Assembly: GCA_965221775.1 (NCBI GenBank)
Contig: CBDCSU010000005.1
Location: forward strand, 224,001-288,000
Reading direction: 5' to 3'
Length of the DNA stretch: 64,000 nt
DNA from: Candidatus Latescibacterota bacterium
GTDB taxonomy: Bacteria > Latescibacterota > UBA2968 > UBA8231
This document shows positions 9,300-51,926 of this stretch, one piece after another (within the stretch, counting starts at the first letter, position 1; each line of letters begins with the position of its first letter). The position numbers and the translations under genes are program-made. Under the pieces are notes generated by a model that had not been told where the DNA came from, did no database searches, and worked only from the letters and a program-made list of their open reading frames with translations.

Positions 9300-9309
9300 A
9301 CCGAAGGAG

Positions 9310-36081: not shown

Positions 36082-36818
36082 GCGGCCGCGCCCTGATCCT
36101 GGGGGCCCGCTCGGCCATCGCCGCGGCCCTGGCCCAACGGCTGGCCGGGGACGGCTGGGACCTGGTGCTGGCGGCGCGCGATTGCCGGAGGCTGGAGCCG
36201 GTGGCCGCCGACCTGCGCCTGCGCCGGCAGCGGCAGGTGGACCTGCTGGAGTTCGACGCCCTCGACCTGGCGTCGCACGCCTGTCTCGCCGACCGGGTGC
36301 GCGCCGCCGCCGGCCCCTTCGACCTCGTGGTCTGCGTCTTCGGCTACGCCGGCGATCCCGACGCGGCGCGCCGCGACACCGGGGAGATGACGGCCACCCT
36401 GGGCATCAACTTCACCGCCGCCGCCGTCTGCCTCGGACACCTGGCCAACGACCTGGAGGAGCGGCGCGAAGGCGGCCTCATCGCCGTGAGCTCCGTCGCC
36501 GGCGACCGGGGGCGGCAGTCCAACTACGTGTACGGCGCATCCAAAGGCGGGCTGAACGTCTTCCTCCAGGGCCTGCGGAACCGTCTGGCACCCGCCGGGG
36601 TGCACGTGATGACCGTGAAGCCGGGCTTCGTGGACACGCCGATGACGGAGGGCCGCGAGGGGCTGTTCCTGGTGGCCTCGCCGGAGCGGGTGGCCGGCGA
36701 TGTCCTGCGCGCCTGGAAGAGGCGGCGGAACGTGGTCTACACGCCCTGGTTCTGGCGCTGGATCATGCTCCTGATCCGCCTGGTGCCGGAGGGGTTGTTC
36801 AAGCGGCTGAGGCTGTAG
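36078..36818 (+). CDS. dprE2: DprE2-like short-chain reductase
   Basis: GTGA overlap; ILGA.SAIA, SSVAGDRGR.SNYVYGASK, VKPGFVDTPMT. Confidence 0.8.
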   Translation: MSGRALILGARSAIAAALAQRLAGDGWDLVLAARDCRRLEPVAADLRLRRQRQVDLLEFDALDLASHACLADRVRAAAGPFDLVVCVFGYAGDPDAARRDTGEMTATLGINFTAAAVCLGHLANDLEERREGGLIAVSSVAGDRGRQSNYVYGASKGGLNVFLQGLRNRLAPAGVHVMTVKPGFVDTPMTEGREGLFLVASPERVAGDVLRAWKRRRNVVYTPWFWRWIMLLIRLVPEGLFKRLRL

Positions 36819-39033
36819 GCGCCGGGCCTGGGGGGCCGTCCAGGGCTTGGCGCAGGCGCGAGGCCAGGTTGGTGTTCCGCCGGGCGGGGCGGTCGTTCTC
36901 GATGGCCCGCCGCAGGGCGCGCTGGCTGCCGATGAGGACGAAGAGCTCCCGGGCCCGGGTGACGGCGGTGTAGAGCAGGTTGCGCTGCAGCATCGGGTAG
37001 TGCTGGGTCGTCAGGGGCAGGACGACGGCCGGGAACTCCGAGCCCTGGGAACGGTGGATGCTGATGGCGTAGGCCATGCTCAGCTGGTCGAGCTCGGCCA
37101 GCTCGTAGCGCTGCACGCCGCCGTCGTCGAAGACGACCTCGGCGAAGGACTCCTCCCCCGTCTCCAGGCGGCCGATGCGCCCCAGGTCGCCGTTGAAGAC
37201 CCCCTTGTCGTAGTTGTTGCGCACCTGCATCACCCGGTCCCCCTCGCGCAGCTCGCGATCGCCGATGGCGTGGGCCTTGCGCCCCGGGTTCAGGCGCTCC
37301 TGGAGCTGGCGGTTGAGCTGCAGGGCGCCGGTCTCGCCGCGGTACATCGGGGTCAGGACCTGGACCTGCCGCATGGGGTCGAGGTCCCGGCCCTGCGGCA
37401 GGCGGCGGGCCACGAGGTCCACGAGGCGCTCGGCGGCGCGGGCGGGGTCGTCCTCCTCGACGAAGTAGAAGCCGGAGTCGGCGCGGTTGTCGATCCGGGG
37501 CCACTGGCCCCCGTTGATGCGGTGGGCGTTGCCGACGATGAGGTTGTCGCCGGCCTGGCGGTAGATGTGGCGCAGGCGCGCCACGGGCACGACGCCGGAG
37601 TCGATGACGTCCCCGAGGAGGTTGCCGGGGCCGACCGAGGGCAGCTGGTCGGCGTCGCCCACCAGGACCAGCCGCGCCGCGTCGGGGACGGCCCGCAGCA
37701 GCGCGTTCATCAGGTTGATGTCGATCATGGAGCTCTCGTCGACGATGACCGCCTCCGCCTCGAGGGGCAGGTTGTCGTCGCGGCGGAAGCCGCCCTCCCG
37801 GGGCGCGAACTCGAGGAGCCGGTGGATGGTGCGGGCCTCGCGGCCGGTGGCCTCGGTGAGGCGCTTGGCGGCCCGCCCCGTGGGCGAGCACAGGGCCACC
37901 CGCAGGCCGGAGGCCTCCAGGCGCCCCACGATCTGGCGGGTGATGGTGGTCTTGCCCGTGCCGGGGCCGCCGGTGACGACCAGGACCTTCCCCGCACCCA
38001 CCTGCTCCAGGGCCCATCGCTGGTCCTCTCCCAGGGACGCTTCCTCCTCGGCATCCGCCTCCCCCGCCTCCTTGGCCAGAGGCGGCCCCGGCGAGGTGAG
38101 AAGCCGCTCCAGGGCCCTGGCCACCCCCCGCTCCGCCCGGTGCAGGCGGCGCGGATAGCAGTCCCGCCCCTCCACGACGACGTCCCCCGATTCCCGGAGG
38201 GCCGCAAGCGCCTCCGGCACGCGCCCGGGGTCCACGCCGAGCAGCTCGGCAGCCGCCGGGGCCAGCTCCTCCTCGGGCAGGAAGAGATGGCCCTCGTCGG
38301 CGGCCTCCTCCAGCAGGTAGCGGAGGCCGGCGCGCACGCGCTCCGGGGCGTCGTGCGCGATGCCGAGATCGCCGGCGATGCGGTCCGCCGTCTGGAAGCC
38401 GATGCCGCGCACGTCGCGCTGCAGCCGGTAGGGATCCTGCCGGACGCTGTGGATCGCCTCCTCGCCGTACTGCTGGTAGATGCGCACCGCGTGCCCCGTG
38501 CCGACGCCGTGGGACTGGAGGAAGACCATGACGTCGCGGATGCGCCGCTGCTCCTTCCAGGCCTCGGCGATGGCCCGCGCCCGCTTGCGCCCCAGGCCCT
38601 CGATCTCCAGCAGCCGCCGCGGCTGGGCGTCGATCACCGTGAGGGAGGAGTCGCCGAAACGGGCGACGATGCGCCCCGCCATGACCGGACCGATCCCCTT
38701 GATCAGCCCTGAGCCGAGGTAGCGCTCGATGCCTTCGGCGGTGGCGGGATACGCGGGGATGCACGACTCCACTTGAAGCTGGCGGCCGAAGCGGGGGTGG
38801 AGGTCCCAGCTCCCCTCCAGCTGCACGCTCTCGCCGGCGGAGACGGCCATGGTGCCGACGACGGTGACCGGCTCCCCCTCGCCTTCCGGTTGCAGCCGGG
38901 CGATGGTGTAGCCGTTCTCCGGGTTCTGGAAGGTGATGTGGTCGATGAGCCCCTTGAGACGCACTCCCGTCCCGGGTGCCGGGTCCTCCCGCGCCGCTCT
39001 CCCGGCGCCCTCGAAGAGATCCCCTTCGCTCAC
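36799..39033 (-). CDS. recD2: ATP-dependent RecD2 helicase
   Basis: N-terminal OB and HhH (YL.SGLIKGIG); GGPGTGKT, DESSM, GDADQLPSVG, YAISIHRSQGSE, LYTAVTRA. Confidence 0.93.
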   Translation of the reverse strand: MSEGDLFEGAGRAAREDPAPGTGVRLKGLIDHITFQNPENGYTIARLQPEGEGEPVTVVGTMAVSAGESVQLEGSWDLHPRFGRQLQVESCIPAYPATAEGIERYLGSGLIKGIGPVMAGRIVARFGDSSLTVIDAQPRRLLEIEGLGRKRARAIAEAWKEQRRIRDVMVFLQSHGVGTGHAVRIYQQYGEEAIHSVRQDPYRLQRDVRGIGFQTADRIAGDLGIAHDAPERVRAGLRYLLEEAADEGHLFLPEEELAPAAAELLGVDPGRVPEALAALRESGDVVVEGRDCYPRRLHRAERGVARALERLLTSPGPPLAKEAGEADAEEEASLGEDQRWALEQVGAGKVLVVTGGPGTGKTTITRQIVGRLEASGLRVALCSPTGRAAKRLTEATGREARTIHRLLEFAPREGGFRRDDNLPLEAEAVIVDESSMIDINLMNALLRAVPDAARLVLVGDADQLPSVGPGNLLGDVIDSGVVPVARLRHIYRQAGDNLIVGNAHRINGGQWPRIDNRADSGFYFVEEDDPARAAERLVDLVARRLPQGRDLDPMRQVQVLTPMYRGETGALQLNRQLQERLNPGRKAHAIGDRELREGDRVMQVRNNYDKGVFNGDLGRIGRLETGEESFAEVVFDDGGVQRYELAELDQLSMAYAISIHRSQGSEFPAVVLPLTTQHYPMLQRNLLYTAVTRARELFVLIGSQRALRRAIENDRPARRNTNLASRLRQALDGPPGPAPTASAA

Positions 39034-39656
39034 ATCAAGGCAGGTCGCAGCAGCAGGGTGACGGCCGCCCCGAGGGCGGCGCCGGCCACCAGCTGCGCCG
39101 GTGAGTGGGCCTGCCGCCGCCACCGGGCCCACCCCGCCGCCAGGGGCAACAGCGCGCACAGGGGCCACCACGCGGCTTCCACGAGGGTGGCCGCCAGCGC
39201 CGCCCCCCCTCCGGCGCCGGTGGTGTGGATGCTGATCTTCCAGCGGCGGTTCACCAGGCCGACGCCGGCGGCGCCCACGGCGAAGGAGGCCGCCGCCCAG
39301 CGCTGCACCGGCGGCATCTGCAGCCCCTGGAGGAGCGCGAAGCCCACCGCGTAGCAGAGGGTCCCGACGAGCAGGAACCGCCTGCGCAGAGGGCGGGGGG
39401 GATCGTAGATGTCGTCGACTCCCCCGCCCCTGGCCAGCCAGCCGAGGAGGGCCGCGGGGCCGATGGAGAACAGCAGGATGGCCAGGGCCTTGCCCCACGC
39501 CGCCGACAGGGGATCGTCCCCGGCGGGCAGCCACAGGAAGACGATCAGGGCGAGGGCCGGCGGACTGAGGAGATGGGTGATCCAGCGCGCGGCCCCGTCG
39601 GCCCCGGTCTCCCGGCGGGCCGTTCCCGGGCGCGATCGATCGGCCGCGGCTCTCAC
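39030..39656 (-). CDS. PAP2-like membrane protein
   Basis: About 6 TM helices; WKISIH and WAR....HS..QL..G motifs; GTG start inferred. Confidence 0.65.
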   Translation of the reverse strand: MRAAADRSRPGTARRETGADGAARWITHLLSPPALALIVFLWLPAGDDPLSAAWGKALAILLFSIGPAALLGWLARGGGVDDIYDPPRPLRRRFLLVGTLCYAVGFALLQGLQMPPVQRWAAASFAVGAAGVGLVNRRWKISIHTTGAGGGAALAATLVEAAWWPLCALLPLAAGWARWRRQAHSPAQLVAGAALGAAVTLLLRPALM

Positions 39657-39691
39657 ACCTCCGTCCCCGCCGTCACCCCCGGGCCGGGCCC

Positions 39692-40129
39692 TCACCGCTT
39701 CCACTTCTTGCCGCTGGCATCCTTCCCTCTCCTGGCACCCCCGGAACCCGCTTTCCGGGCGCTCTCCACGAGGAAGCCGATGAACCGCTTCTGACCGAGG
39801 GTCTTCAGGTAGGAGAGCAGGGAAACCTCCGCCTCCTTGCGGTCGAGCTTGTAGCGGTCCCGGAGGCCTTCGATCATGTCGGCCACGGAGTTGCGGCCGT
39901 CGCACATCTGCCAGACCTGGGCGCCCACCTCATCGAGGGTGATGGTCCGCTTCTCGGGGATGTAGAAGAGCTTCGACAGGAGTCGGGTCTTCCAGGTCTC
40001 CTGCCGGGTCACCGTGATCCGGACCTCACCCTCCTCGGTCTTCTCCCACGCCAGCAACTCGTTGCGGGCCGGCCGCGACTCCAGCATGGCGTCCCGCGTC
40101 AGCCGCGGCTTCTTCTTCGTGGCAAACAT
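39692..40129 (-). CDS. Stand-alone PqqD-family (RiPP recognition element) protein
   Basis: LDEVGAQVWQMCDG..SV..MI..L...Y......AE.SL..YL..L..K.FI winged-helix signature; ATG at 40129. Confidence 0.85.
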   Translation of the reverse strand: MFATKKKPRLTRDAMLESRPARNELLAWEKTEEGEVRITVTRQETWKTRLLSKLFYIPEKRTITLDEVGAQVWQMCDGRNSVADMIEGLRDRYKLDRKEAEVSLLSYLKTLGQKRFIGFLVESARKAGSGGARRGKDASGKKWKR

Positions 40130-41144
40130 ATCCGTCAATGACCTCGTCGAGGGTGTCGCCGCCCTGCTCGCTCTTCTTGAACAGATGCTCGACGATGCAG
40201 ATGCGATTCTGGTCGGGGCAGTGCCACACGGCGCCCCGCAGGTGGCGCCTCGGCCTCGGGTTGACGAAGGGCAGGGGCCGCAGCACCTGGCGCCAGCGGC
40301 TCTGGGGCCGCCCGGTGACACTCAGGCCTTCGTGGCCCCGGAAGTCGGACCGGGCGATCTCGTGGTTCACGTCGCGCAGGTCCTTGCGGAAGAAGGAGGG
40401 GTACCAGTCGGAAAGGTTGGTCCCCTTCAGCAGCATGTGGGCCATGCTCAGCCGGTGCACGCGCAGGACCTGGGCGCCGCCGTCCTTCTCGAAGGTCATC
40501 TTCACGTGGCCCGACTTCAACTCCTTCTCGGTGAGCTCGAAGTCGGCGGGGGCGTGGAAGGTGAGGCCGTACAGGCTCCAGTACTGCAACTTGCCGCGCG
40601 GGTGGTCCTCGAGGGTGGGCAGGACCTCGTTCACCAGGCCGATCGCGCCGACGCCGTCGTCCTTTGCCGCCAGCACCCGCAAAAGCACGATGCGGCCGCA
40701 GTCCGGACAGGCGCGGGCCAGGTTGTAGGCCCGGTAGTCGGCCTCCCAGATGAAGGTCTCGTACTCGCTTCCCTCGAGCCAGCGCTTGTCCTGGAGGAAC
40801 TTGGCGCGCCGCTCGACGCGCAACTCCATGCCCGCCTTGTCGGCCTTCTTCTGCAGCTGGGAGATATAGCGGCTTACGAGATCCTCCACGGGCCGGCGGA
40901 TGCCCCGCTTGGGAGGCGCCCGCCACTCGACCTCGGCCCGCACCATGCGCGTGTCGTCGAGGCGGGCGTAGCCGCTGGCGGCGTCGCCGTCGACCCGGCC
41001 CATCTCCCACTCCTCCGGGACGCGCAGACGGATCCCCTGCCAGCCGAAGTCGTAACGCCGGCCCCCCCCGGCCTGGGATGTCCCCGCAGGCTGCCGGGCC
41101 GGGGCCCCGCCTTCCACGGCCGGCAGTCCGTCGCTCGCGGACAT
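40026..41144 (-). CDS. Conserved hypothetical protein with internal duplication (PsbP/DcrB-like halves)
   Basis: Two halves: WQGIRLRVPEEWE...CPDCGR...EDH and LYGLTFHAPADFE...CPDQNR...VCH. Confidence 0.7.
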   Translation of the reverse strand: MSASDGLPAVEGGAPARQPAGTSQAGGGRRYDFGWQGIRLRVPEEWEMGRVDGDAASGYARLDDTRMVRAEVEWRAPPKRGIRRPVEDLVSRYISQLQKKADKAGMELRVERRAKFLQDKRWLEGSEYETFIWEADYRAYNLARACPDCGRIVLLRVLAAKDDGVGAIGLVNEVLPTLEDHPRGKLQYWSLYGLTFHAPADFELTEKELKSGHVKMTFEKDGGAQVLRVHRLSMAHMLLKGTNLSDWYPSFFRKDLRDVNHEIARSDFRGHEGLSVTGRPQSRWRQVLRPLPFVNPRPRRHLRGAVWHCPDQNRICIVEHLFKKSEQGGDTLDEVIDGYVCHEEEAAADAGRHAGVAAGPQRVAGVGEDRGG

Positions 41145-41168
41145 GGACCCTTTCCGACCCGGGCCCGG

Positions 41169-43649
41169 CTAGAAGATGAGGACCGACACCGACTTCTGGA
41201 TCAGGGCGATGGAGATCGACGCCATGCCCATGAGCGCCATGCCGCAGGCGAAGCCGACGGCGAGGACGGGCGCATAGGTGCGCCACTGTTGTCGTCCGTA
41301 GCGGTTCCAGAAGTAGTACCGGGCCAGCATGGCGCCGATGACTTCGGTGATCATCCAGTGGGGGATCGTCGTCAGGGCGCGCACGTAGCCGAAGACGAGG
41401 AGGATGGGCAGCCCGAAGGCCGACAGGAGGATGTAGCTGCCCAGGCCGACGACGGTCCCGGCGACGATGAGGTTCGGCTTGATGGCGCGGAAGAGCCAGG
41501 GCTCGTCGGTGGAGCGCTGGATCCAGGGGCTGGTGAAGTTCGGGTCGGTGTCGACGGCGAAGTAGTACTCCCAGCCGGCGGGCAAGGTCTGGGCGCTGGA
41601 GGCGAGGAGGGCTGGGCGAGGCGTGTCGACGACGCCGATCACCGGTTTCTCGCCCTCGACCAGCTCGGGGATGCGGTCCGGCGTGGCCACGGCGTCGCGG
41701 ATCAGGTCGGCGGCGTGGGGCAGGCCCGCGGCAGCCGGGCCTTCGGCGCGCACCTCGTAGCCTCCGGCCGGCGCCGCCTTCTCCAGGGCGCCGGGAGGCA
41801 GGGTCGGAACGTCTTCGGGCATACCCTCGCCGAAATGGGTGTAGAAGGCGCGCTTCTCGGACCAGGGGCCGGCCTCGCCGAGCTTGCCCTGCGACTCGAT
41901 CCACTTGCTGTCGGCGGCGCGCACGCGCCAGTACCACCACTCCCCCTCCACCAGGTTCGACGGCACCCAGGTGGCGCTGTTGCGCTCCGGCGACTCCTTC
42001 AGCTCGCTCTTCAGGGTGCCGGTGAACCAGATGCAGGTCTGCAGGGCCCGCAGGCGCCACATGACCTGGGCATAGGGGTACGAGGCCGAGGGGATGGGCG
42101 CCAGCTTCCAGATGTAGGAGGAGTAGAGGAATGTGGCGAAGAGGACGATGGGCACCATCACCAACTCGGCCTTGATGATGCTCGTGAACTTGGTGCCCGT
42201 GAGCTCGATCTCGCGGAACTTCTGGGTCTGGGAGCCGTAGTTGCCCAGCGGGAAGGGCATGAACCAGATGTCCACGCCCTGGTACCCGGAGAGGATGATC
42301 GTCGCCTCGCGCACGTAGGGGATCTCGATCGTCTGCCCCACCATGCCCACGAGGCGCGCGTTGACGAAGGACTGGAACGGCGTCAGCACGAACCCGAAGA
42401 ACAGGAAGAACCAGATGAACTGGTGGAAGGCGGGCAGGAAGATCCAGGCGATGACGATGAGGCCGGCGGCGGTCAGCCCGTACAGGGTCAGGGCGATCCA
42501 CATGGGGAAGTCGCCGCGCCCTTCGGGCACCGCCCAGGAACCGCCCCCTCCGCCGGAGGCCCTGGCGGCGGCGGCGTTTCGCAGCCCCTGCACGACCTGC
42601 CAGATGCCGATGAGGGCGATGGCGATGGTCGTGCCGATGCCGAAGCTCATCCAGAAGTCGACGGAGTTGACGAAGAAGGTCTCGATGGCGCCCATGCCGG
42701 GCTGCCAGATCTGCAGGTAGCCGAGGTCGTAGAGGATCGGGTTGGCCACCGAGTGGGCGACGACGCCGAGGAAAGTGCCCATGACCCCCCAGAAAGGCAT
42801 GACGAGGCCGGCGAAGATCGGCCCCAGGTGGGCGGTGAACCCGAGGGGGGTGGCGGGGATGAAGTTGCCCGTGACCTGCGTGAAGTCGACGAAGGGAATG
42901 GGGATCAGCTGGATCGGCTTGGTGAGCAGGGAGCCGGAGATCGCCGGGATCGCCACGTACAAGGTGCCGAAGACGAGGCCGATCATGGCCCCGGCGGAGA
43001 ACGCCCTCCAGCGCCACGACTCCACCCCCTGGGTGGTCTCGGCCAGGGCCGTGGCCCCCTGGGCGGCGACGGGCGCGAAGGGGAAGGGCAGGCGCTCGTA
43101 GTCGGAGTTCAGCCGGAAGAGGGCATAGGCCATGGTGAACCACGAGACCCGCGAGATCACGAACTGCGCCAGCAGCAGCGAGATGGGGATGATCCAGTCG
43201 GTGTGCAGGAAGGTCCGCTGCAGCAGCGCCGGCGACTCCAGGGGCGGCGCCCACCAGTCCGGGATCAGGTTGGCGATGCCGAACTGCTGCGCCGGCGGCG
43301 ACTGGCGCAGGTACTGGTTCCACAGCAGCCCCTCGAAGGCGCCGGTCTCGGCGGCGATCAGTCCCGCCGCCACGTAGTAGAGGACGTACACCTCCTGGCG
43401 CGTCAGGGAGGTGAAGGAGCGCTTGGTGATCTCGGCGAAGAGGATGATCGTCACCCACTCCGCCGCGGCGCCGAGGGAACCGCCCACCATGAGGCTGAGG
43501 TACATGTTCCCCGGGATCATGACGAAGGCGACGAAGAACACGCCGAGGATCGCCTTGCGCGTGAAGCCGTCCTCGAACTCGGTGGGCGTCTCGAGGAGGT
43601 CGCGGTACTCTTCGACTTCCTGGTTGGCGTTGCTCTTGCGTCTCAGCAT
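41169..43649 (-). CDS. OPT-like (oligopeptide transporter superfamily) membrane protein with inserted soluble domain
   Basis: Many TM helices; N-terminal GFT.KAILG..F...MIPGNMYL.L..G, L.FP.APV.A, WKLAPIPSA.YP; hydrophilic insert near the C-terminus. Confidence 0.7.
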   Translation of the reverse strand: MLRRKSNANQEVEEYRDLLETPTEFEDGFTRKAILGVFFVAFVMIPGNMYLSLMVGGSLGAAAEWVTIILFAEITKRSFTSLTRQEVYVLYYVAAGLIAAETGAFEGLLWNQYLRQSPPAQQFGIANLIPDWWAPPLESPALLQRTFLHTDWIIPISLLLAQFVISRVSWFTMAYALFRLNSDYERLPFPFAPVAAQGATALAETTQGVESWRWRAFSAGAMIGLVFGTLYVAIPAISGSLLTKPIQLIPIPFVDFTQVTGNFIPATPLGFTAHLGPIFAGLVMPFWGVMGTFLGVVAHSVANPILYDLGYLQIWQPGMGAIETFFVNSVDFWMSFGIGTTIAIALIGIWQVVQGLRNAAAARASGGGGGSWAVPEGRGDFPMWIALTLYGLTAAGLIVIAWIFLPAFHQFIWFFLFFGFVLTPFQSFVNARLVGMVGQTIEIPYVREATIILSGYQGVDIWFMPFPLGNYGSQTQKFREIELTGTKFTSIIKAELVMVPIVLFATFLYSSYIWKLAPIPSASYPYAQVMWRLRALQTCIWFTGTLKSELKESPERNSATWVPSNLVEGEWWYWRVRAADSKWIESQGKLGEAGPWSEKRAFYTHFGEGMPEDVPTLPPGALEKAAPAGGYEVRAEGPAAAGLPHAADLIRDAVATPDRIPELVEGEKPVIGVVDTPRPALLASSAQTLPAGWEYYFAVDTDPNFTSPWIQRSTDEPWLFRAIKPNLIVAGTVVGLGSYILLSAFGLPILLVFGYVRALTTIPHWMITEVIGAMLARYYFWNRYGRQQWRTYAPVLAVGFACGMALMGMASISIALIQKSVSVLIF

Positions 43650-43668
43650 GCTCGAGAGGGGGCGCGGT

Positions 43669-46600
43669 TCAGGCGGAGACGGAGCCGGCGGGGGCGCCGG
43701 AGAGCAGTTCCTGTCCCTGGCTCCGGTAGGCCTCCTTGGCCTCGGCGTCGACGGTGCGCCAGATGAGGAACTGCTTGCGGATGACGTTCATGAAACGCTG
43801 GTTGACGCGCCGCCACGAGGCGTCCTCGCCGCTCAGGCGCCGGATGTCGAGCTGGATCTGGTAGATGTTGTGCTCGGACTCGGGCAGGGCGCGGATGACG
43901 ACGTGCTGGCTCACCCCCAGGTCGAAGGGCGCCAGCCAGATGTTCATGTCGATGGTGTAGCCCTCGCCGTACTCGGAGTCGAGGCGGCCCAGCTTGGCGC
44001 CGTCGGTGTAGAAGGTCCCGATCGACTCCTCGGAGTAGGAGTCGAAGTAGCCGATGAGGAAGACCGACAGGCCGAGGACGTCGCGCCCCGCCACGGTGAA
44101 GGGGAACTCGAAGTGCCAGTCGTCCCCTTCGGGCCGCGGCAGCCGCCAGCGGCGGGTCACGTCGGGGACCGCCATCTGCGACGCCCGGCGCGCCGGGTAG
44201 ATGGTGGAGAGCATGACCACCGCCATCACCAGGATGCAGGAGAGCACCGCCGACAGGGACGAGTAGTTGAGGGTGAAGCCGGTGACCACCCCGAGCTGGG
44301 TGAGCAGGGTCGCCGTGATCTGACCGACGAGGTAGCCGGCCACCACCCCGAGGACCGAGTAGACGCAGGACTCGGCCATGAACAGCCAGGCGATGTGCCC
44401 CGGCGCCAGGCCCACGGAGGAGTAGATGCCGATCTCGCGGAAGCGCTCGTAGACGCTGCCCATCATCGTGTTGAGGACGATGAGGGCGGCGATGAGGATC
44501 GGCACGAAGAGGTTGGCCACCCCCGACAGCGAGGTCATGCCCAGGGAGCTGTAGATCGACACCTTGATGTAGTCGTCGCCCGGCTCCTGGATGCCGGCGA
44601 AGAGGGTCACCGCCAGGCGCGACAGGAACTGCTCGATCTCGGCGCGCTCGTCGACGCCCTCGTCGAAACGGATCGCCACCGACTGCAGGGGATTGCCGCT
44701 GCCCACGTTGCGCAGCGTGTGGTACGGCAGGATCAGGGTGTTGGCCGGCTCCAGGTGGACGAAGGGCTTGATCACCACCTGCGCGTCCTCGAGGCCCTGC
44801 TTCTCCCGCTGCTCCTCCTCGGCGATCTCCTGCACCGCCTGGCCGCCGGTGACGGCGAAGTCGGCGGGCGTCATCGTCTCGTCGTCGAGATCCTTCAGCT
44901 CCTTCATGCGCGTGGAGTTGATGATGCCGATGACGGTGAACCGCTCGCCGAAGACGCGCACCGTGACGCCGCCGGCGTCGACCTCGCCCATGTCGATGCC
45001 GAGCTTGTCGGCCCCGAGCATGTCGTTCGGCAGGATGCAGACCCTCTCTTCGCCCTCCCGGAACCAGCGCCCCGCCAGCAGGGCCTGGTCGAGGCCGGTC
45101 ACATCGGTCTCGGACGGGGTCAGGCCGAGGACGCCGAGGGCGTTATGGGCATCCTCGCCGTACTTGATCTTGATGTGGGCCTTCTTCTGGTTGTCGTACC
45201 AGCTCCGCGGCGCGATGGCGGCCCGGCCGCCGAAGTTGCTGTGGGCGTACTCGAGGACCGACTCCTCCAGCGGCGTCCACGCCTTGCTGCGGATCAGCAG
45301 GCCCTCGTAGAGCCCCTCGTTGTCGCGCTCGATCTGGTTGTAGCGCAGCGCCGTCTGGATGGACGTGAAGGACAGGACCGTGAAGGTGAGCAGCAGCAGG
45401 GTGACGAAGGTCAGCGCCGTGCGCAGCTTGCGGCGCTTCATGTTGGAGATGCCCAGGAGGAAGGCGGTGAGGGAGGCGCTGGAGCGGCTCACGTCGGTGT
45501 CGTGAATGACCGCCACCTCGGTGCGCAGCTTCTTCATCTGCTCGTTGAAGCGGCCGGAGATGATCCACATGACGAGGGCCGCGAGGACGAGGATGACGAA
45601 GGCCAGGAGAATGACGAAGGGGTTGGACAGCTCGAAGGCCGGGTGGACGAAGGAGAGGACGATCCAGATGACGAGGAAGATGCCGGCGAAGCCCATGATC
45701 TGGCGCTGGATCGTGGCGGCGGTGATCAGCAGGCGCTCGGCGAAGTAGGCGCAGGGCAGGACCAGGGCCATGAAGAAGATGATGCCCTGGATCACGTCGT
45801 TCTGGGTCGACTTGACGTCGGGATAGGCCCGCGACTCCAGGCCGATGGCGGAGCGCGTGTGGCGCACGAACTCGCTCCACTCCTTGCGCTCCAGGGCCGC
45901 CGCCGCCCGTTCCAGCTCCCCCCGGGCGCGTTCGTGCAGGTCGTTCAGACGCTGGTTCTCGATGGCGAAACTCCGCAGCTCGCGCATGCGGGCCTCGTCG
46001 AGGGTCCACATGTCACGGGCCGACTGGTAGGAGGTTCGCGCGAAGGAGGACCCCGGCTCCATGGCGAAACCCGCCCCCAGGGCCTCCTCCTTGTCGTCCG
46101 GGTTCTCGGAGTTCAGCAGCAGGGAGCGGAAGCCGAGAATGCCGGCGCCGAAGCCCATTTTCACCAGGGCCCCCGGACGGGCGAAGAGCACGCCCACCGG
46201 CTCGTCCTTGGCCGAGGGGCCCTCCCCGATGGTGTATCCGTACTCCACGGGGGAGGCGTTGGTCTCGTCGAAGACGGTGACCTCGGAGAGCTTGGTGAGG
46301 TAGCGGGGGTCGACGATGTCGAAGAAGTTGAAGGCGTGACACGGGAAGAGGACGACCATCCACTCCTTGTCGCGCCAGTCCATCTTGATCAGCATCGGGT
46401 AGGCCTGGTCGCCCTGGATGCCGCGGTCGGGCGCGTAGCTGACCCGTCCGGTGGCCGGGTCCATGCGGTAGCCCTCCACCTGGACCTGCTCGACGCGGAT
46501 GCGGTTGACGAAAAAGGCGCCGTCGCCGTCGACGACCTCGAAGTACTCGCCGCGCACGCCCTTGTAGGACTTCTTCTTGCCGTTGCGCACGACGCCGACG

Positions 46601-48480
46601 GCGCCGGTGCGCGGCAGGTCCGGCACGATGCTGCGCCTCGGGAAGACCATGGTCCGGGCCTTCAGGGAGCGCATCGTGTCCTTGAGGCGCATCTTGAAGT
46701 CGGGGAACAGCTCCGGGTCCTCGAAGGCCATGTGGAACATCCCCGCCAGGGCCCGGATCTGCCGCGAGAGGTTGTCGTAGCGGATGTGGTGCGCGCGGTC
46801 GAGAGGGGTGTCGACGAGGAACCGGGCGTCGTTCACGGTGACGAAGGCCAGGGCCGGTGTCCCCGTGGTCAGCACCAGCTCGCTGTTCACGGAGATCTCG
46901 CCGGGGACGAAGGTCTCCCAGCTCTTGCCCCCCTCGGGGCTGATGCCGTTCACCAGGACGTCGCGGAAGCTGTAACCGAGCTCGCGGCTCACCTTTCGCG
47001 AGTAGCCCATGAAGTTCTTGCCGAAGGGCGCGAAGTAGCGCTTGTAGTAGAAGCTCGAGTTGCTGTTCCAGATGCCGAGCTCGTCGGTCTGCGTCGACAG
47101 GTCGAGGCTGATGAACAGGTTCACGTCGAGGGAATCGACCTTCGGATCGACCCACTCGCGGTAGAAGCCCAGGCGCAGGTCCTCGTCGTCGCCGAGCTTC
47201 CTAAGCAACTCGTCGGAGGAGTCGAAGGAAGCCTGGCGGAGCTCGGACCCCTTCCTGTACCGGAGCCGCCAGTCGTCGCCGTCGCGGATGATCAGGTCTT
47301 CGCCGTCCGCCATGGAGGCCCTGGCCACGGCGCGCACGAGAAGGGTGTCGGTCTCGGCCACGGAGCGAACCAGCGCTTCCTTGCCGCTGAAGGTCTCCTC
47401 GCCGAGAAGGTAGGTGACCCCGTCCTCTCCCTCGCCGATCAGCCCGCGGGCCAGGGACGCTTCGATGACTCGGCGCAGGACCATGCGGTCGATGAAGGGG
47501 TTCTCGTCGCGCAGGTAGCGCTGGATGAAGTCGTCGATGCCGCGCAGGGCGAGGTGGTGGGCGGAGGTGGCGAGGAACAGGACCGAGCGCGCCGGGGGAT
47601 GCTCGCGGAAGTACCGGGCCAGCTCGAGCAGGGCCGTGATCCCCGCCGCCTGCTCGGCGCCGGGCGCGAGGGAGGGCACCACCGACATGGCGTCGTAGTA
47701 CGACTCCAGGACGATCACATCGTCCTGGAGCAGGGGGTCGTAACCGGGGATGAAGCCCATGACGTTCCAGGCCGGGCGCCGCTCCCAGTCCATGCGGTAC
47801 TCGAGGTGGGCCGAGGGCGGCCCGCCCGCGCCCTCGATCGCCTCCCGCAACAGTCCGCCATCCGGGCCGCTCACCCAGAACCGGGGCAGGTCGAGGGGCA
47901 TGGTGAGGAACTTCTTCTCGCCCTCCAGGTAGACGGTCGAGTCGGGCTCGATGAAGACGACGGCGGCGGCGCCCAGATAGGCGCCGTTGAGCCAGTTGTC
48001 GCCGGAGTTGAAGTCGAGGACGACGACGGCCCCCTCCACGTCCTGGCCGTCGAACTCCACGAACTCCCCCCGTCCGCCGTAGATCAGGGGCCCGTGGATG
48101 CCGCCGTCGGGCAGGGTCGAGGTGCGCACCAGGTTGGGCCACAGTCCGTGGAGCTCCACGGAGGGCCCTCCCGCGATCCTGAGACGTCCTCCCTGGTCGA
48201 CGGGCACGGAGACGTCGTACTTGTGGAAGGTGATGTCGTGCAGGCCGATCTGCCGGAACTGGCGGTGCACGTGCAGGGCCGCCTCCTCGGCTCCGGGATA
48301 GCCGGCCACGCGCGAACCGAGGCCCGAGAAGAACCCCACGGTCCGGCGCAGACGGTCCTCCGGCGCCAGCTGGCGGAGGGCCTCGAAGTCGACTTCGGCC
48401 GCCGCCGGCGCCGCCGCGAGGACGGCGAGCAGGCCGAGGGACCCCGCGCGCAGACGGAGAAACGGGCGCATATCGGTCAT
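43669..48480 (-). CDS. Giant fusion: signal peptide + PA/M28-like (nicastrin/nicalin-like) ectodomain + TM bundle + MacB/FtsX permease
   Basis: SRVAGYPG, PA domain, ESYYD...APGAEQAAG..ALLELAR; ISNMKRRKLRTALT; NTMMGSVYER.REIGI..SVG; YPARRAS. Alternative ATGs at 48471 and 48507. Confidence 0.85.
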   Translation of the reverse strand: MTDMRPFLRLRAGSLGLLAVLAAAPAAAEVDFEALRQLAPEDRLRRTVGFFSGLGSRVAGYPGAEEAALHVHRQFRQIGLHDITFHKYDVSVPVDQGGRLRIAGGPSVELHGLWPNLVRTSTLPDGGIHGPLIYGGRGEFVEFDGQDVEGAVVVLDFNSGDNWLNGAYLGAAAVVFIEPDSTVYLEGEKKFLTMPLDLPRFWVSGPDGGLLREAIEGAGGPPSAHLEYRMDWERRPAWNVMGFIPGYDPLLQDDVIVLESYYDAMSVVPSLAPGAEQAAGITALLELARYFREHPPARSVLFLATSAHHLALRGIDDFIQRYLRDENPFIDRMVLRRVIEASLARGLIGEGEDGVTYLLGEETFSGKEALVRSVAETDTLLVRAVARASMADGEDLIIRDGDDWRLRYRKGSELRQASFDSSDELLRKLGDDEDLRLGFYREWVDPKVDSLDVNLFISLDLSTQTDELGIWNSNSSFYYKRYFAPFGKNFMGYSRKVSRELGYSFRDVLVNGISPEGGKSWETFVPGEISVNSELVLTTGTPALAFVTVNDARFLVDTPLDRAHHIRYDNLSRQIRALAGMFHMAFEDPELFPDFKMRLKDTMRSLKARTMVFPRRSIVPDLPRTGAVGVVRNGKKKSYKGVRGEYFEVVDGDGAFFVNRIRVEQVQVEGYRMDPATGRVSYAPDRGIQGDQAYPMLIKMDWRDKEWMVVLFPCHAFNFFDIVDPRYLTKLSEVTVFDETNASPVEYGYTIGEGPSAKDEPVGVLFARPGALVKMGFGAGILGFRSLLLNSENPDDKEEALGAGFAMEPGSSFARTSYQSARDMWTLDEARMRELRSFAIENQRLNDLHERARGELERAAAALERKEWSEFVRHTRSAIGLESRAYPDVKSTQNDVIQGIIFFMALVLPCAYFAERLLITAATIQRQIMGFAGIFLVIWIVLSFVHPAFELSNPFVILLAFVILVLAALVMWIISGRFNEQMKKLRTEVAVIHDTDVSRSSASLTAFLLGISNMKRRKLRTALTFVTLLLLTFTVLSFTSIQTALRYNQIERDNEGLYEGLLIRSKAWTPLEESVLEYAHSNFGGRAAIAPRSWYDNQKKAHIKIKYGEDAHNALGVLGLTPSETDVTGLDQALLAGRWFREGEERVCILPNDMLGADKLGIDMGEVDAGGVTVRVFGERFTVIGIINSTRMKELKDLDDETMTPADFAVTGGQAVQEIAEEEQREKQGLEDAQVVIKPFVHLEPANTLILPYHTLRNVGSGNPLQSVAIRFDEGVDERAEIEQFLSRLAVTLFAGIQEPGDDYIKVSIYSSLGMTSLSGVANLFVPILIAALIVLNTMMGSVYERFREIGIYSSVGLAPGHIAWLFMAESCVYSVLGVVAGYLVGQITATLLTQLGVVTGFTLNYSSLSAVLSCILVMAVVMLSTIYPARRASQMAVPDVTRRWRLPRPEGDDWHFEFPFTVAGRDVLGLSVFLIGYFDSYSEESIGTFYTDGAKLGRLDSEYGEGYTIDMNIWLAPFDLGVSQHVVIRALPESEHNIYQIQLDIRRLSGEDASWRRVNQRFMNVIRKQFLIWRTVDAEAKEAYRSQGQELLSGAPAGSVSA

Positions 48481-48518
48481 GACCGGGTAATGATCGGCAA
48501 ACGGCATGGGCCCCGCAA

Positions 48519-49049
48519 TCACCGACCGGGGGCGGGGCCTCCCCCGTAGCCCGCCCTGGCCAGGGCCCGCACCGCGTAGTAGGTGATCAGCCCCGTCATC
48601 GCCCCGGAGAGGACGCCGCCCACCAGGAAGAGGGGCAGCAGCCGCAACAGACCCGCCTGGGCGAGATAGACCTCGGCCACCAGGAGCTGCGTCACCTGGT
48701 GGACGACGGCCCCCGCGACGCTCAGCCCCACGGGGCTCAACAGGCCGGGCAGGTATCGCCGCAGTCCGATCATCGCGGCCAGGCTCGTGAGGGCGGCGCT
48801 GCCCCCGATGACCGACGCCGGGCCGGCCAGACCGCCGCTCAACAGACCGCCGACGACGACCTTCACGGCGCTCACCGCCGCCCCCGGGCCGCCGCCGAAG
48901 AGGAGCAGCGTCGACAGGACGGCGGCGTTTCCGAGTCCGAGCTTCATCCACGGCAGGGGGCGCGGCACGACCGTCTCGAAGACGAAGAGGATCAGGGCGG
49001 CGGCGGACATCAGCCCCAGGAAGGCGACGCGCTTTGCGGGCGAGAGCAT
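48519..49049 (-). CDS. Gx transporter / heptaprenyl diphosphate synthase component I family membrane protein
   Basis: E...P.PLPWMKLGLGN, S.VG.SVAGA..H...QL motifs. Confidence 0.85.
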   Translation of the reverse strand: MLSPAKRVAFLGLMSAAALILFVFETVVPRPLPWMKLGLGNAAVLSTLLLFGGGPGAAVSAVKVVVGGLLSGGLAGPASVIGGSAALTSLAAMIGLRRYLPGLLSPVGLSVAGAVVHQVTQLLVAEVYLAQAGLLRLLPLFLVGGVLSGAMTGLITYYAVRALARAGYGGGPAPGR

Positions 49050-49543
49050 CAGCGGCTGACCCCGTCGAAGGAGGGACCGCCCTCCCCTTCGACCCGGACC
49101 ACCAGATGGTTGGGGACACAGACCGCCACGTCGCCCACCGCCCGCAGCCAGCCGCGGCGGACGCAGATCCGCCGGGCGCAGGGAGAGTCCACAACGCGGG
49201 CACGGCCGCCGTCGACCTCCACCGCGCTCACCCCGGCGGGGCCGGGCACCTCGATCCGCGCCGCCTCGTGCAGCGGCAGGAGACGCACGACCTCGCCTCC
49301 CACCTGCACGCTCGCCGCCCGGGGGGTCCCACCGCCGGGCCTCGCCACGAGCAGGGCCGCCGCCGACAGCAGCACCACCGCCGCGAGAACGATGTCGCCC
49401 GGGCTGGGAGGCAGGGGCCGGTACGGCTTGACACTCCCCCTGGGGCTGATTACACTGGCGAGAGCGCCGCGCAATGACGTATCTCGTTGTCGGCTATGGA
49501 GTAACCGCCGTTTCGCCGGGCCTGTTTCGAGGCCTCCGGACAC
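49049..49543 (-). CDS. NusG domain II (DUF1312) protein; true start probably nearer 49400
   Basis: GDI.L TM helix; SPC...ICV..GW......CVPN motif; TGATG coupling to the Gx gene. Confidence 0.8.
   Translation of the reverse strand: MSGGLETGPAKRRLLHSRQRDTSLRGALASVISPRGSVKPYRPLPPSPGDIVLAAVVLLSAAALLVARPGGGTPRAASVQVGGEVVRLLPLHEAARIEVPGPAGVSAVEVDGGRARVVDSPCARRICVRRGWLRAVGDVAVCVPNHLVVRVEGEGGPSFDGVSR
49428..49456 (+). promoter_or_regulatory. sigma70 promoter for relA/spoT
   Basis: TTGACA-N17-TACACT. Confidence 0.7.
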
Positions 49544-49592: not shown

Positions 49593-51869
49593 TTGACGAC
49601 CTCCCGGACCGCCGTCGAAGAAGCGCCCCCCCGCGACGGGGAAGACCTGCCGGAGCGCCCGGGCCCCACCAATCTCGAGGCGCTGCTCGAGGACTCGCGG
49701 GACCACCTGCAGCTGCAAATGCTGCTCATCGAGGTCGCCTCGTGCAACGAGTCCGCCGACTTCGACCTGGTGGCCCGCGCCTACCACTTCGCCCACGAGG
49801 CCCACGCCGGGCAGATCCGCAAGTCGGGGGAACCCTACCTCCAGCACATCGTCGAGGTGGCCCGGATCCTCGCCCAGCTGCGCCTCGACACGACCACCGT
49901 CGCCGCCGGCCTGCTCCACGACGTGGTGGAGGACACGGCGGTCACGCAGGACCAGATCGAGTCCCGGTTCGGGTCCAAGATCTCGGCCCTCATCGACGGG
50001 GTCACCAAGATCGAGCGCTTCCAGCTCGAGAGCCGCGAGGCCCGCCAGGCCGAGACCTTCCGCAAGATGCTGCTGTCCATGGTCGAGGACATCCGGGTCA
50101 TCCTGGTCAAGTTCGCCGACCGGCTGCACAACATGCGCACCCTGGACGCCCTCGACGACGACCAGCGCCAGCGCATCTCCCACGAGACCCTCGAGGTCTA
50201 TGCGCCCCTGGCCCACCGGCTGGGCCTGGCCCGGATCCGCTGGGAGCTGGAGGACCGCAGCCTCAAGCATCTCGAGCCCGCCTTCTACCGCGAAATCCGC
50301 GAGAAGGTGGCCATGCGGCGCGAGGAGCGGGAGCGCCTGATCGACGGCTTCAAGACGCCCCTGGCCGAGGAGCTGGCTCGCAGCGGCATCGAGGCCGAGA
50401 TCACCGGGCGTCCGAAGAACTTCTACAGCATCTACAACAAGATGCGCAGCCGGGTGAAGCCCTTCGAGGAGATCTACGACCTCACGGCGGTGCGCATCAT
50501 CGTCGGCACCGCGCGCGAGTGCTACCACACCCTCGGCCTGGTGCACACCCTCTACCGCCCGATCCCGGACCGCTTCAAGGACTACATCGCCACGCCCAAG
50601 ACCAACATGTACCAGTCGCTGCACACCACGGTCATCGGCCCTCAGGGCATGCCGGTGGAGGTGCAGATCCGCACCTGGGAGATGCACCACACGGCGGAGA
50701 TCGGCATCGCCGCCCACTGGCGCTACAAGGGGGGGGGAGCCGGGGAGAGCAGCGACCTCGACCAGCAGATGAACTGGCTGCGCCAGGTCCTCGACTGGCA
50801 GCGGGACTCCACCGACCCGGCGGAGTTCATGGAAAACCTGAAGATCGAGCTCTTCCAGGACGAGATCTTCGTCTTCACCCCCAAGGGCGACCTCCACCAG
50901 CTGCCGAAGGAGGCGACCCCCATCGACTTCGCCTTCGCCATCCACACCGACATCGGCCTCCACTGCCTGACCGCCAAGGTGGACGGCCAGATCGTTCCCC
51001 TGAGCACGCCCCTGACGAGCGGCGCCACCGTGCAGATCATCACCTCGCCCCACCAGAAGCCGAATCCGTCCTGGCTCGAGATGGTCAAGACCGCCAAGGC
51101 CCGCCAGGCGATCCGCCGATGGGTGAAGGAGGAGCGATTCTCCCAGAGCGTGCGCCTCGGCCAGGAGATCCTCGAGCACGAGCTGAAGCGCTACCGCCAC
51201 CGCGCCGGCAGCGAGGCCCTCGAGGAGCTGGCGGCGGAGATGAAGCTCGCCGACACCGAGCACCTCTACGCGGCCATCGGCGCCGGCGACCTGTCGGTGA
51301 GCCGCGCCGTCAACCGCCTCGTGCCGAATCCGCCGAAGCGTCGGGTGCGGCCGCTGATCCGCGACCGGCGGGGCATCCGCATCCAGGGCATGAACGACAT
51401 GATGATCCACTTCGGGAAGTGCTGCACGCCGATTCCCGGAGACCCGATCATCGGCCTCATCACCCGGGGCCGGGGGCTGTCGGTGCATCGCACGGACTGT
51501 CCCAACTTCGCCGACCTGGCCGAGGATCCGGAGCGCCTCACGCCGGTGGCCTGGGACCTCGAGGAGGAGCAGGCCTTCACGGTGCAGCTCCTCGTGTGCG
51601 GGCATGACCGCAGGTACTTCCTCTCCGACGTGACCCGCATCATCTCCGACACGGGTGCCAACATCGTCAGCTGCGAGACCCGGACCCTGGCCCACGTCGT
51701 GGAGGAGACGTTCCGGATCGACGTCCACGATTCCCGGCAATTGCAGAAGATGGTGAAGAAGCTGCGCGGCGTGGAAGGCGTCACCGAGGTGCAGCGCGTC
51801 GACGAAGTGGCCGTGGAGGGACCGGACCTCCGCGGCGAGGAGGGACGGGGGTCCGCCGAGCCCCGGTGA
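49593..51869 (+). CDS. relA: Bifunctional (p)ppGpp synthetase/hydrolase (long RSH)
   Basis: RKSGEPY..H, LHDVVED (intact HD), KFADRLHNMRT, YQSLHT, EVQIRT, TGS, CC.PIPGD, ACT; TTG start approximate. Confidence 0.95.
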   Translation: MTTSRTAVEEAPPRDGEDLPERPGPTNLEALLEDSRDHLQLQMLLIEVASCNESADFDLVARAYHFAHEAHAGQIRKSGEPYLQHIVEVARILAQLRLDTTTVAAGLLHDVVEDTAVTQDQIESRFGSKISALIDGVTKIERFQLESREARQAETFRKMLLSMVEDIRVILVKFADRLHNMRTLDALDDDQRQRISHETLEVYAPLAHRLGLARIRWELEDRSLKHLEPAFYREIREKVAMRREERERLIDGFKTPLAEELARSGIEAEITGRPKNFYSIYNKMRSRVKPFEEIYDLTAVRIIVGTARECYHTLGLVHTLYRPIPDRFKDYIATPKTNMYQSLHTTVIGPQGMPVEVQIRTWEMHHTAEIGIAAHWRYKGGGAGESSDLDQQMNWLRQVLDWQRDSTDPAEFMENLKIELFQDEIFVFTPKGDLHQLPKEATPIDFAFAIHTDIGLHCLTAKVDGQIVPLSTPLTSGATVQIITSPHQKPNPSWLEMVKTAKARQAIRRWVKEERFSQSVRLGQEILEHELKRYRHRAGSEALEELAAEMKLADTEHLYAAIGAGDLSVSRAVNRLVPNPPKRRVRPLIRDRRGIRIQGMNDMMIHFGKCCTPIPGDPIIGLITRGRGLSVHRTDCPNFADLAEDPERLTPVAWDLEEEQAFTVQLLVCGHDRRYFLSDVTRIISDTGANIVSCETRTLAHVVEETFRIDVHDSRQLQKMVKKLRGVEGVTEVQRVDEVAVEGPDLRGEEGRGSAEPR

Positions 51870-51896
51870 CCGCCGCGTCTCCGCACGGTGAGGCCG

Positions 51897-51926
51897 TTGA
51901 CACTGTGCGCGAGGCCCGGGTATTTT
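51897..51926 (+). promoter_or_regulatory. sigma70 promoter for hisC
   Basis: TTGACA-N18-TATTTT. Confidence 0.55.

Follow-up and report, generated by a model that had tools for sequence, protein, structure and literature searches.

A gene block on the minus strand of a Latescibacterota genome is best explained as the best-conserved copy of an inner-membrane system whose core is a giant permease paired with a permease of the oligopeptide transporter (OPT) fold. The block lies in a window of 64,000 nucleotides (positions 224,001 to 288,000 of contig CBDCSU010000005.1, assembly GCA_965221775.1), and the phylum follows from the source names of close relatives of a 372-aa protein that the block encodes. 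Under the same explanation, this 372-aa protein (zinc-type) and a PqqD-family protein are cytoplasmic components, and a small FtsX permease and a LolD/MacB-type ATP-binding cassette (ABC) ATPase complete the system. The genes very probably form a unit conserved across the phylum, with the motor encoded in trans in this genome. For function, our preferred reading, which we hold tentatively, is a type VII ABC mechanotransducer that, together with the OPT-fold permease, captures peptides in the periplasm and imports them. With a window G+C of about 70%, we trusted family matches and conservation over the length of open reading frames (ORFs).

The giant had been described from its translation as a fusion of a "pseudo-M28" domain and a MacB/FtsX permease, and this description is supported by Pfam, by alignment to the aminopeptidase YwaD (6hc6), and by a profile of 20 giants compared with the Protein Data Bank (PDB). 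A signal or transmembrane (TM) segment at residues 20–38 is followed by a protease-associated (PA)/M28-like ectodomain (about residues 40–340) and a second ectodomain with no assigned family that reaches to about residue 900, so that hydropathy predicts a periplasmic part of about 860 residues. Three TM segments at 904–982 and a cytoplasmic linker lead into a MacB-type module (TM1 at 1031–1049, a periplasmic core, and TM2–4 at 1326–1435), and the protein ends in a very well conserved cytoplasmic domain of 165 aa. Residues 342–455 (window ~47140–47480) are a lineage-specific insertion, skipped by tblastn matches in other families. The FtsX C-terminal three-helix domain is present (PF02687, 57.2 bits, cut-off 25.5), MacB_PCD scores just below its cut-off (PF12704, 26.5 bits against 27), and Peptidase_M28 matches over profile positions 1–78 of 193 only (PF04389, 28.8 bits, cut-off 21.3; E-values are in Table 1). 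In the PDB, the N-terminal part matched the aminopeptidases 2ek8 (2.3e-14) and YwaD (2e-10) and, more weakly, Nicalin (3e-5) and the apical domain of the transferrin receptor (1e-4). Matches of the C-terminal part ranged from 2e-9 to 5e-5 and included YtrF (2.3e-9), MacB (2.6e-9), LolC (1.7e-5), and LolF. MacB (5lil) was aligned over chain residues 471–655, and the hydropathy layout of TM1 and the periplasmic core is compatible with it.

The catalytic positions of the M28-like domain are altered in a conserved way. At the positions that we take, from the family literature, to be the metal ligands and the catalytic Glu, the giant has Tyr-Tyr-Asp for His-x-Asp, Glu for the bridging Asp, and His-His for Glu-Glu, so the canonical ligands and the catalytic Glu are absent at all three positions that can be aligned with YwaD. 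The second half of the domain and the last two ligands are not alignable. All 23 giants and paralogs that could be aligned keep these replacements, with His in 16, Phe in six, and Tyr in one at the second His position; a 24th sequence, misaligned through its chosen ORF start, was left out of the count. Because the replacements are conserved across giants, the label "pseudo-M28" is fair. The similarity to YwaD, 2ek8, nicalin, and the transferrin receptor covers the PA insert together with the M28 domain's first half. Unlike PA-domain M28 aminopeptidases, the giant carries the changes His to Tyr, Asp to Glu, and Glu-Glu to His-His/Phe/Tyr, and is fused to an ABC permease.

The permease module shares with MacB, LolCDE, and FtsEX the FtsX C-terminal domain, the hydropathy-predicted arrangement of TM1, periplasmic core, and TM2–4, a conserved TM2–TM3 loop, and a LolD/MacB-type ATPase as its presumed motor. 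In the loop, ERFREIG, residues E1353, R1354, E1357, and I1358 are invariant in 20 giants; we take this loop to be the coupling helix, by comparison with the MacB and LolC structures. The giant differs from these systems in about 1000 extra N-terminal residues (the PA/M28-like ectodomain and three TM segments) and in its 165-aa C-terminal domain. It also misses the curated cut-offs by a wide distance, scoring 21.3 bits against lolCE models (cut-off 362.45), and scores of the system against curated FtsX models are 20–32 bits (cut-offs 225–255). Further differences are the constant OPT-fold partner, the short outer loop of the small FtsX, and an ATPase encoded in trans here.

The 826-aa protein encoded after the giant is OPT-like by predicted fold and by no curated sequence model. 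No Pfam family matched it, the profile of its family matched no PDB sequence, and its C-terminal helices reached only 17.4 bits against TIGR00728 (cut-off 128.35). Its AF2 model (pLDDT 74.7, pTM 0.73) was compared with the PDB by Foldseek, and the only two matches at E ≤ 0.001 were structures of barley Yellow Stripe 1 (7wst/7wsr; E 3e-7, probability 1.00, TM-score 0.60 by target, 11% identity); the next match had E 0.05. The OPT-like identity first proposed from sequence is thus borne out at the level of a predicted structure. The protein resembles OPT and Yellow Stripe-like transporters in overall fold and in the weak C-terminal TIGR00728 match, but differs in its low identity, in the lack of a Pfam OPT match, in its constant pairing with the giant, and in a beta-rich insertion of about 170 aa (residues ~545–720, window ~41490–42015) that is missing in the deep-branching families f11 and f12.

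MacB/FtsX permeases normally need an ABC ATPase, and the sequence-only reading had reported none in the operon. This was correct for the operon, where a Pfam scan found no ABC ATPase, radical SAM, or YcaO gene, but it does not hold for the genome or the phylum. Two loci carry the operon DUF6785, tetratricopeptide repeat (TPR) gene, giant, OPT-like gene, 372-aa homologue, PqqD, small FtsX, and ABC ATPase (L046 and L047), and a third has the same order from the TPR gene on, with no DUF6785 upstream (L041); the three represent different, deep families. The small FtsX is a permease of 228 aa with an outer loop of only ~57 aa, and a large and a small permease together recall LolC/LolE. In the window's genome (G000), the orthologous pair lies on another contig (C6:2503812-2505348) and is 56% (small FtsX) and 75–80% (ATPase) identical to the pairs of the three loci, with the next-best ATPase at ~44% in the first tblastn search. 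Repeating tblastn without the low-complexity filter located a second ATPase paralog at C4:611863, with identities of 54% to the ATPase of L046 and 49% to the genome's own one. The small FtsX and ATPase genes are adjacent in four of four genomes checked (G000, G052, G080, and G010), and the ATPases of the other three are 77–82% identical to that of G000. A paralogous ATPase gene is also found at three f3 loci, on the strand of the giant and OPT-like genes, either just upstream of DUF6785 (L054 and L056) or ~5.5 kb upstream of the giant (L055). This genome has 43 FtsX-domain matches in total, most of which fall in a 27-kb array of duplicated ADOP-like FtsX-domain permease genes (C6:2131823-2159266).

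The family membership of the ATPase bears on a further alternative, that the system extracts or assembles envelope proteins, either as a LolCDE-like lipoprotein extractor or as a nicalin/nicastrin-like receptor that holds protein termini during the release, folding, or insertion of membrane or secreted proteins, with the OPT-fold protein as a structural partner. The best NCBIfam matches of the ATPase were LolD, MacB, YbbA, DevA, and FtsE, all below cut-off. LolD led with 224.9 bits, and the permeases weakly match lolCE and MacB models. The M28-like receptors matched by the giant profile, Nicalin and the transferrin receptor, are non-catalytic, one of the paralogous giants in this genome has a peptidyl-prolyl isomerase (PPIase) gene directly upstream, and the PsbP/Mog1/DUF1795 fold of the 372-aa protein includes chaperones that hold transmembrane helices, such as SciW. 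However, the Lol models were missed by far (cut-off 307.75 for LolD; 21–56 bits against 362 for lolCE, with the small FtsX at 55.9 against 362.45), and no ATPase of the genome exceeds the LolD cut-off, this one ranking only fifth. The nicalin similarity spans only ~70 residues, and the constant OPT-fold partner is left unexplained. We consider this alternative highly unlikely. As for FtsE, the ATPase scored 200.9–201 bits against a cut-off of 264.85 and was the fourth-best FtsE match in the genome; with all scores below curated cut-offs, neither an FtsE nor a LolD identity is established.

The components are distributed together across the phylum, which we scored in 168 genomes of 14 families. 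The giant (first 900 residues as query, default threshold) was found in 155 genomes, the OPT-like protein (profile, E ≤ 1e-30) in 154, the 372-aa gene (default threshold) in 149, with one match per genome in 148 of these, and the small FtsX (E ≤ 1e-25), as a single copy, in 148. Each of the four occurs in 13 of the 14 families, and none in the 13 genomes of family f10. Co-occurrence of the core genes in other genomes, which the sequence-only reading had made a matter for checking, is therefore widespread, with giant, OPT-like, and 372-aa genes in 149–155 of 168 genomes and a recurrent gene order.

Gene order was compared around the 372-aa gene in 20 genomes, two of the loci being cut by contig ends. 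PqqD adjoins the 372-aa gene at 16 of the 20 loci, and the giant and OPT-like genes do so at seven, in four families (f1, f8, f11, and f12); at one f6 locus, at a contig end, the OPT-like gene alone is beside it. A further 13 giants were examined at 12 loci (f2, f3, f4, f6, and f7), with the OPT-like gene directly downstream of eight and a DUF6785/DUF6784 membrane protein gene directly upstream of eight. Between the window and a locus of another genus (L032), identity was 73% for the giant and 67% for the OPT-like protein, compared with 57% for the neighbouring RecD2-like helicase and 40% for the NusG-II domain protein. The order of giant and OPT-like gene recurs across families and both are the best conserved of the block, so the arrangement is not due to chance.

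In the window's genome, the giant and OPT-like pair is one of five paralogous modules. The genome contains five giants, five OPT-like genes, of which four adjoin giants or lie near them, and 21 matches to DUF6785. The 372-aa gene, PqqD, and this type of small-FtsX/ATPase pair are each present only once. Where a genome has just one giant (f8, f11, and f12), that giant is inside the full operon. M42 or M20 peptidase genes flank two of the four other giant modules, and stand-alone DUF6785 genes sit among catabolic enzymes and a LacI regulator, a setting that looks importer-like from its gene content. The 21 DUF6785/DUF6784 places (for example L064-L076) include clusters with SDR, BNR, enolase-type, GFO/IDH/MocA, xylose-isomerase-like, C25 peptidase, and LacI genes, and two of these paralogs adjoin PMT_2+TPR glycosyltransferase-like genes.

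The 372-aa protein belongs to no Pfam family and has neither a signal peptide nor, by hydropathy, a TM segment. Its model (pLDDT 87.4, pTM 0.81) consists of two tandem alpha-beta-alpha sandwich domains of the PsbP/Mog1/DcrB type, at residues 28–182 and 184–343. Foldseek matched PsbP (3e-5) and the two-domain TplEi (7.5e-5), and structural comparison (VIA) gave Z-scores of 13.2 with CyanoP for the first domain (residues 28–181), ~12 for the second (residues 184–348), 11–12 with Mog1/DcrB, and 9.7 with SciW. An internal duplication had been suggested for this Cys/His-containing protein, and the repeat is confirmed by the model, Foldseek, and VIA; the repeated unit, however, is the PsbP/Mog1-like domain and not the Cys/His residues, which look like one site. 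The CxxC...WHC...CH cluster is nearly invariant across the wider family and is lost as a set in two members. Both halves share their fold (Z 11–13) with PsbP/Mog1/DcrB-DUF1795 proteins, which include the two-domain TplEi and Tli4 (type VI secretion system immunity) and the Eag/SciW chaperones. The 372-aa protein differs from these in its cytoplasmic location, its Cys/His cluster, its lack of a sequence-family match, and its genomic partners, which are the OPT-like protein and PqqD here and SEDS proteins (shape, elongation, division, sporulation) in other lineages.

A stretch of 104 nt (40026–40129) is common to the genes for the 372-aa protein and PqqD, in different frames, the disordered tail of the former containing the start of the latter. 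Most relatives have a TGA in place of the window's CGA, and their 372-aa gene stops there, 12 codons sooner. Selenocysteine at this in-frame TGA was considered for the homologues and rejected, the TGA being a normal stop; sequence past it is conserved because the PqqD frame overlaps there. PqqD matches PF05402 over residues 58–117 (49.6 bits, cut-off 23.4) and has a conserved N-terminal extension of 30 aa in which R12, P20, R22, N23, and W28 are invariant in 15 sequences. A complex predicted from residues 25–346 of the 372-aa protein and 1–125 of PqqD had a score of 0.01 and a mark of 0.32, a result that bears on binding in neither direction.

The PqqD fold is known to bind peptides. In a system for maturing and exporting ribosomally synthesized and post-translationally modified peptides (RiPPs), PqqD would recognize the leader peptide, the M28-like domain would remove it, and export would fall to the ABC module. 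The family match, weak matches to lasso-peptide and GeoRSP PqqD models, and an operon that combines a permease of exporter type with a peptidase-like domain fit such a system. PqqD had been described as standing alone, and this agrees with what we found: neither the window operon nor the Pfam-scanned neighbours at seven related loci (L041, L046, L047, L034, L035, L037, and L039) contain RiPP enzymes (radical SAM, YcaO, lasso cyclase, or B2 protease) or a visible precursor gene, and the sole radical SAM gene seen in scanned neighbourhoods is of the lipoyl-synthase type (L042). PqqD also falls below every NCBIfam PqqD equivalog cut-off. Unlike sporadic RiPP clusters, it is a near-universal single copy with 37–62% identity across families, and the peptidase-like domain is periplasmic and lacks the canonical ligands. 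A RiPP role is extremely unlikely. The protein thus resembles PqqD and RiPP recognition elements in its PF05402 match, and differs from them in its N-terminal extension, in its surroundings, and in the overlap of its gene with a PsbP/Mog1-like gene.

In the peptide import reading that we tentatively prefer, a LolCDE-like heteromeric type VII ABC mechanotransducer would consist of the giant, the small FtsX, and the ATPase in two copies, with one ATPase/small-FtsX pair perhaps serving several giant paralogs. Cytoplasmic ATP hydrolysis would move the periplasmic core and the PA/M28-like domain attached to it. This domain may capture the termini of peptides or proteins, perhaps trimming them through a remodelled metal site, and the OPT-fold permease next to it would receive what is captured and import it. 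The cytoplasmic adaptors, either peptide-binding or regulatory, could be PqqD and the 372-aa protein. A peptide or nutrient role is hinted at by the M42/M20 flanks of other modules, the catabolic DUF6785 clusters, and the fold of PqqD.

Several observations weigh against peptide import by a single machine. Peptidase activity of the M28-like domain is doubtful because the canonical ligands are missing at all three alignable positions, and the conserved Asp/Glu/His set could still bind one metal. Kinship between the OPT-like and DUF6785 proteins was not detected by BLASTP and was not significant by hhalign (probability 3%, E 0.014), an ERLxFP stretch common to both being only a hint. Like the OPT-like profile, a profile of DUF6785 matched no sequence in the PDB. 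The common absence from f10 is consistent with a single system and statistically weak, as it concerns one family and possibly one loss event. At four of the 20 loci (f7, f13, and f14), no PqqD gene was found beside the 372-aa gene. Since this genome holds so many FtsX-domain matches, other ATPases could serve its giants. Physical assembly, sharing of the motor, substrate, and direction of transport are our inferences.

The 372-aa gene and PqqD are separate from the giant and OPT-like genes in four families (f2, f3, f4, and f9), which raises the question of whether the four genes belong together. The giant and OPT-like protein could be a transport unit to which the cytoplasmic pair of 372-aa protein and PqqD is unrelated, the genes being neighbours by chance in some families. 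Outside the phylum, the 372-aa family likewise occurs at loci with no match to the giant or OPT-like queries. Yet the pair is located between the OPT-like gene and the small FtsX/ATPase genes in three deep families and directly after the OPT-like gene in f1 (four genera) and f6, and all parts have the same family-level presence and absence. Gaps between genes of the block are 14–24 nt, and contigs from RNA libraries bridge junctions. That no single machine exists is, in our judgement, quite unlikely.

The 372-aa protein, an S41 protease, and LysM domains point in another direction, and together they favour an envelope role, which the sequence-only reading had not anticipated. The profile of the 372-aa family matched 1857 metagenomic cluster representatives among 1.84 billion proteins at E ≤ 0.001 (1099 at 1e-10 and 263 at 1e-30), and two of 10 clusters looked up had taxon names, Armatimonadota and candidate division WS1. 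At five of six Armatimonadota-type loci (L082-L087), all found from a single Armatimonadota member, the homologue is directly downstream of a SEDS FtsW/RodA gene; the sixth starts too near the homologue to judge. A TPR-bearing protein of 570–650 aa is encoded downstream of the homologue at these loci. Within Latescibacterota, family f13 (L042, G031) has the order PBP2, SEDS, 73-aa ORF, 372-aa homologue. A PDZ-containing C-terminal processing protease of family S41 is encoded directly upstream of the small FtsX in two of four genomes (L092 in G052, 8884-10629; L094 in G010, 5021-6709), and a family 2 glycosyltransferase (GT2) gene precedes it in the other two (G080 and G000). LysM occurs in 19% of the members of one Atlas cluster of giants, which we treat only as a lead.

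These links suggest an envelope-remodelling controller of the FtsEX type, in which the giant, small FtsX, and ATPase would use ATP to switch the altered peptidase-like ectodomain and thereby activate or position cell-wall enzymes. From the cytoplasm, the 372-aa protein and PqqD would couple it to peptidoglycan synthesis by SEDS/PBP proteins, and the OPT-fold protein would import the stem peptides set free or have another envelope role. The envelope is where the known type VII ABC systems FtsEX and LolCDE act, and the peptidase-like activator through which FtsEX works is degenerate. A single, very well conserved core copy also fits such a controller. We know of no M28-type wall hydrolase that could be the partner, however, and both SEDS genes of the window's genome are far from the operon. 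In f2–f4, the 372-aa/PqqD pair sits by LexA and DprA and not by envelope genes. The ATPase, as noted, falls below the FtsE cut-off and is not the genome's best FtsE match, and nutrient uptake is a better fit for five giant modules of which some adjoin M42/M20 peptidases. We regard an FtsEX-type controller as somewhat unlikely, yet as a serious rival of the import reading.

A more far-reaching version of the import reading, which we think unlikely, is a hybrid transporter class. Here a shared small FtsX and ATPase would drive interchangeable giants, each of which would dock to an OPT-fold or DUF6785 channel of its own, and the PsbP-like/PqqD pair would gate the system from the cytoplasm and contact the SEDS polymerase in other phyla. 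Such a class could be likened to energy-coupling factor (ECF) transporters, in which one motor is common to many S components.

The sequence-only reading could name no pathway for these genes, and our literature searches (DUF6785, FtsX/M28/PqqD, MacB with M28, PsbP-like/SEDS, and Latescibacterota) likewise found no description of this system. The text of PMC12993501, as distinct from its supplements, which may list such genes, contains no occurrence of M28, FtsX, oligopeptide, peptidase, PqqD, or ABC transporter. No domain is new in kind, but we found no published account of the fusion, of the constant OPT-fold partner, of the PsbP-like/PqqD pair, or of the possibly shared motor.

The block comprises seven genes that run from 49543 down to 39030 (Table 1), and the ORFs, their strand, and their family matches confirm the order first read from the translations. 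Packing is tight, as had been stated, with a 1-nt overlap at the NusG-II end followed by gaps of 14, 19, and 24 nt and then the overlap of the 372-aa gene with PqqD, except that a gap of ~70–90 nt, which exceeds the 40 bp given as the upper limit, precedes the PAP2-like gene. This last gene has five hydrophobic segments and a PF01569 score below the cut-off of 27.2 bits. NusG-II, Gx, and PAP2-like had been listed among the tightly packed genes. Among the 20 loci, these genes and RecD2 occur near the core at only four, all f1 and thus of the window's own family (L031, L032, L033, and L050), and in other families, a DUF6785 and/or TPR gene precedes the giant, so we take the three to be lineage-specific neighbours outside the core. 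As read from the translations, a RecD2-like helicase gene (36799–39000, minus strand) is downstream of the block and a RelA/SpoT-type (p)ppGpp synthetase/hydrolase gene (49700–51900, plus strand) diverges upstream. G+C is 0.67 over the giant and OPT-like genes (42000–48000), compared with 0.72–0.75 on each side.

Table 1. Genes and domains of the block, in window coordinates, with the basis for each assignment.
Feature	Position	Strand	Basis
NusG-II domain protein	49049-49543	-	PF07009, E 2.4e-22
Gx/Hpre_diP_synt_I membrane protein	48519-49049	-	PF07456, E 1.3e-29
Giant, 1611 aa	43669-48504	-	FtsX, E 2.2e-15; Peptidase_M28, E 1.2e-6; MacB_PCD, E 9.5e-6
PA/M28-like part of giant	47485-48387	-	Alignment to YwaD 6hc6
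MacB/FtsX-type four-helix permease module of giant	44170-45414	-	Pfam, PDB profile, hydropathy
OPT-fold polytopic membrane protein, 826 aa	41169-43649	-	Predicted structure and Foldseek
Cytoplasmic tandem PsbP/Mog1/DcrB-like protein, 372 aa	40026-41144	-	Model, Foldseek, no TM segment
PqqD-family protein, 145 aa	39692-40129	-	PF05402, E 5.2e-13
Weak PAP2-like membrane protein	39030-~39620	-	PF01569, 22.5 bits, below cut-off

Sequencing runs that hold 85–100% of the sampled words of the window are labelled sponge or marine metagenome and come from several studies. Contigs from RNA libraries, in four runs of three studies, cover 19–29 of 30 operon bins, and bins without contigs in a single run are not evidence of silence. 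Such contigs bridge the junction of the 372-aa and OPT-like genes (40843–41510) and that of PqqD and the 372-aa gene (39738–40397). They do not prove a single transcript, and DNA carry-over is possible. At window position 41148, contigs of two RNA-library runs (X15 and X16) lack one base in the 24-nt spacer between the OPT-like and 372-aa genes.

Type VII ABC systems are understood from few models, namely MacB, LolCDE, FtsEX, and BceAB. The version kept throughout this phylum has a permease fused with a remodelled PA/M28 ectodomain, a constant OPT-fold partner, two cytoplasmic proteins of adaptor type, and a motor that is possibly shared among paralogs. If the parts work together, they would represent a new coupling of ATP-driven periplasmic work to the pore of a secondary transporter, and they would provide the first functional handles on three unannotated families, the OPT-like, DUF6785/DUF6784, and tandem PsbP-like proteins.

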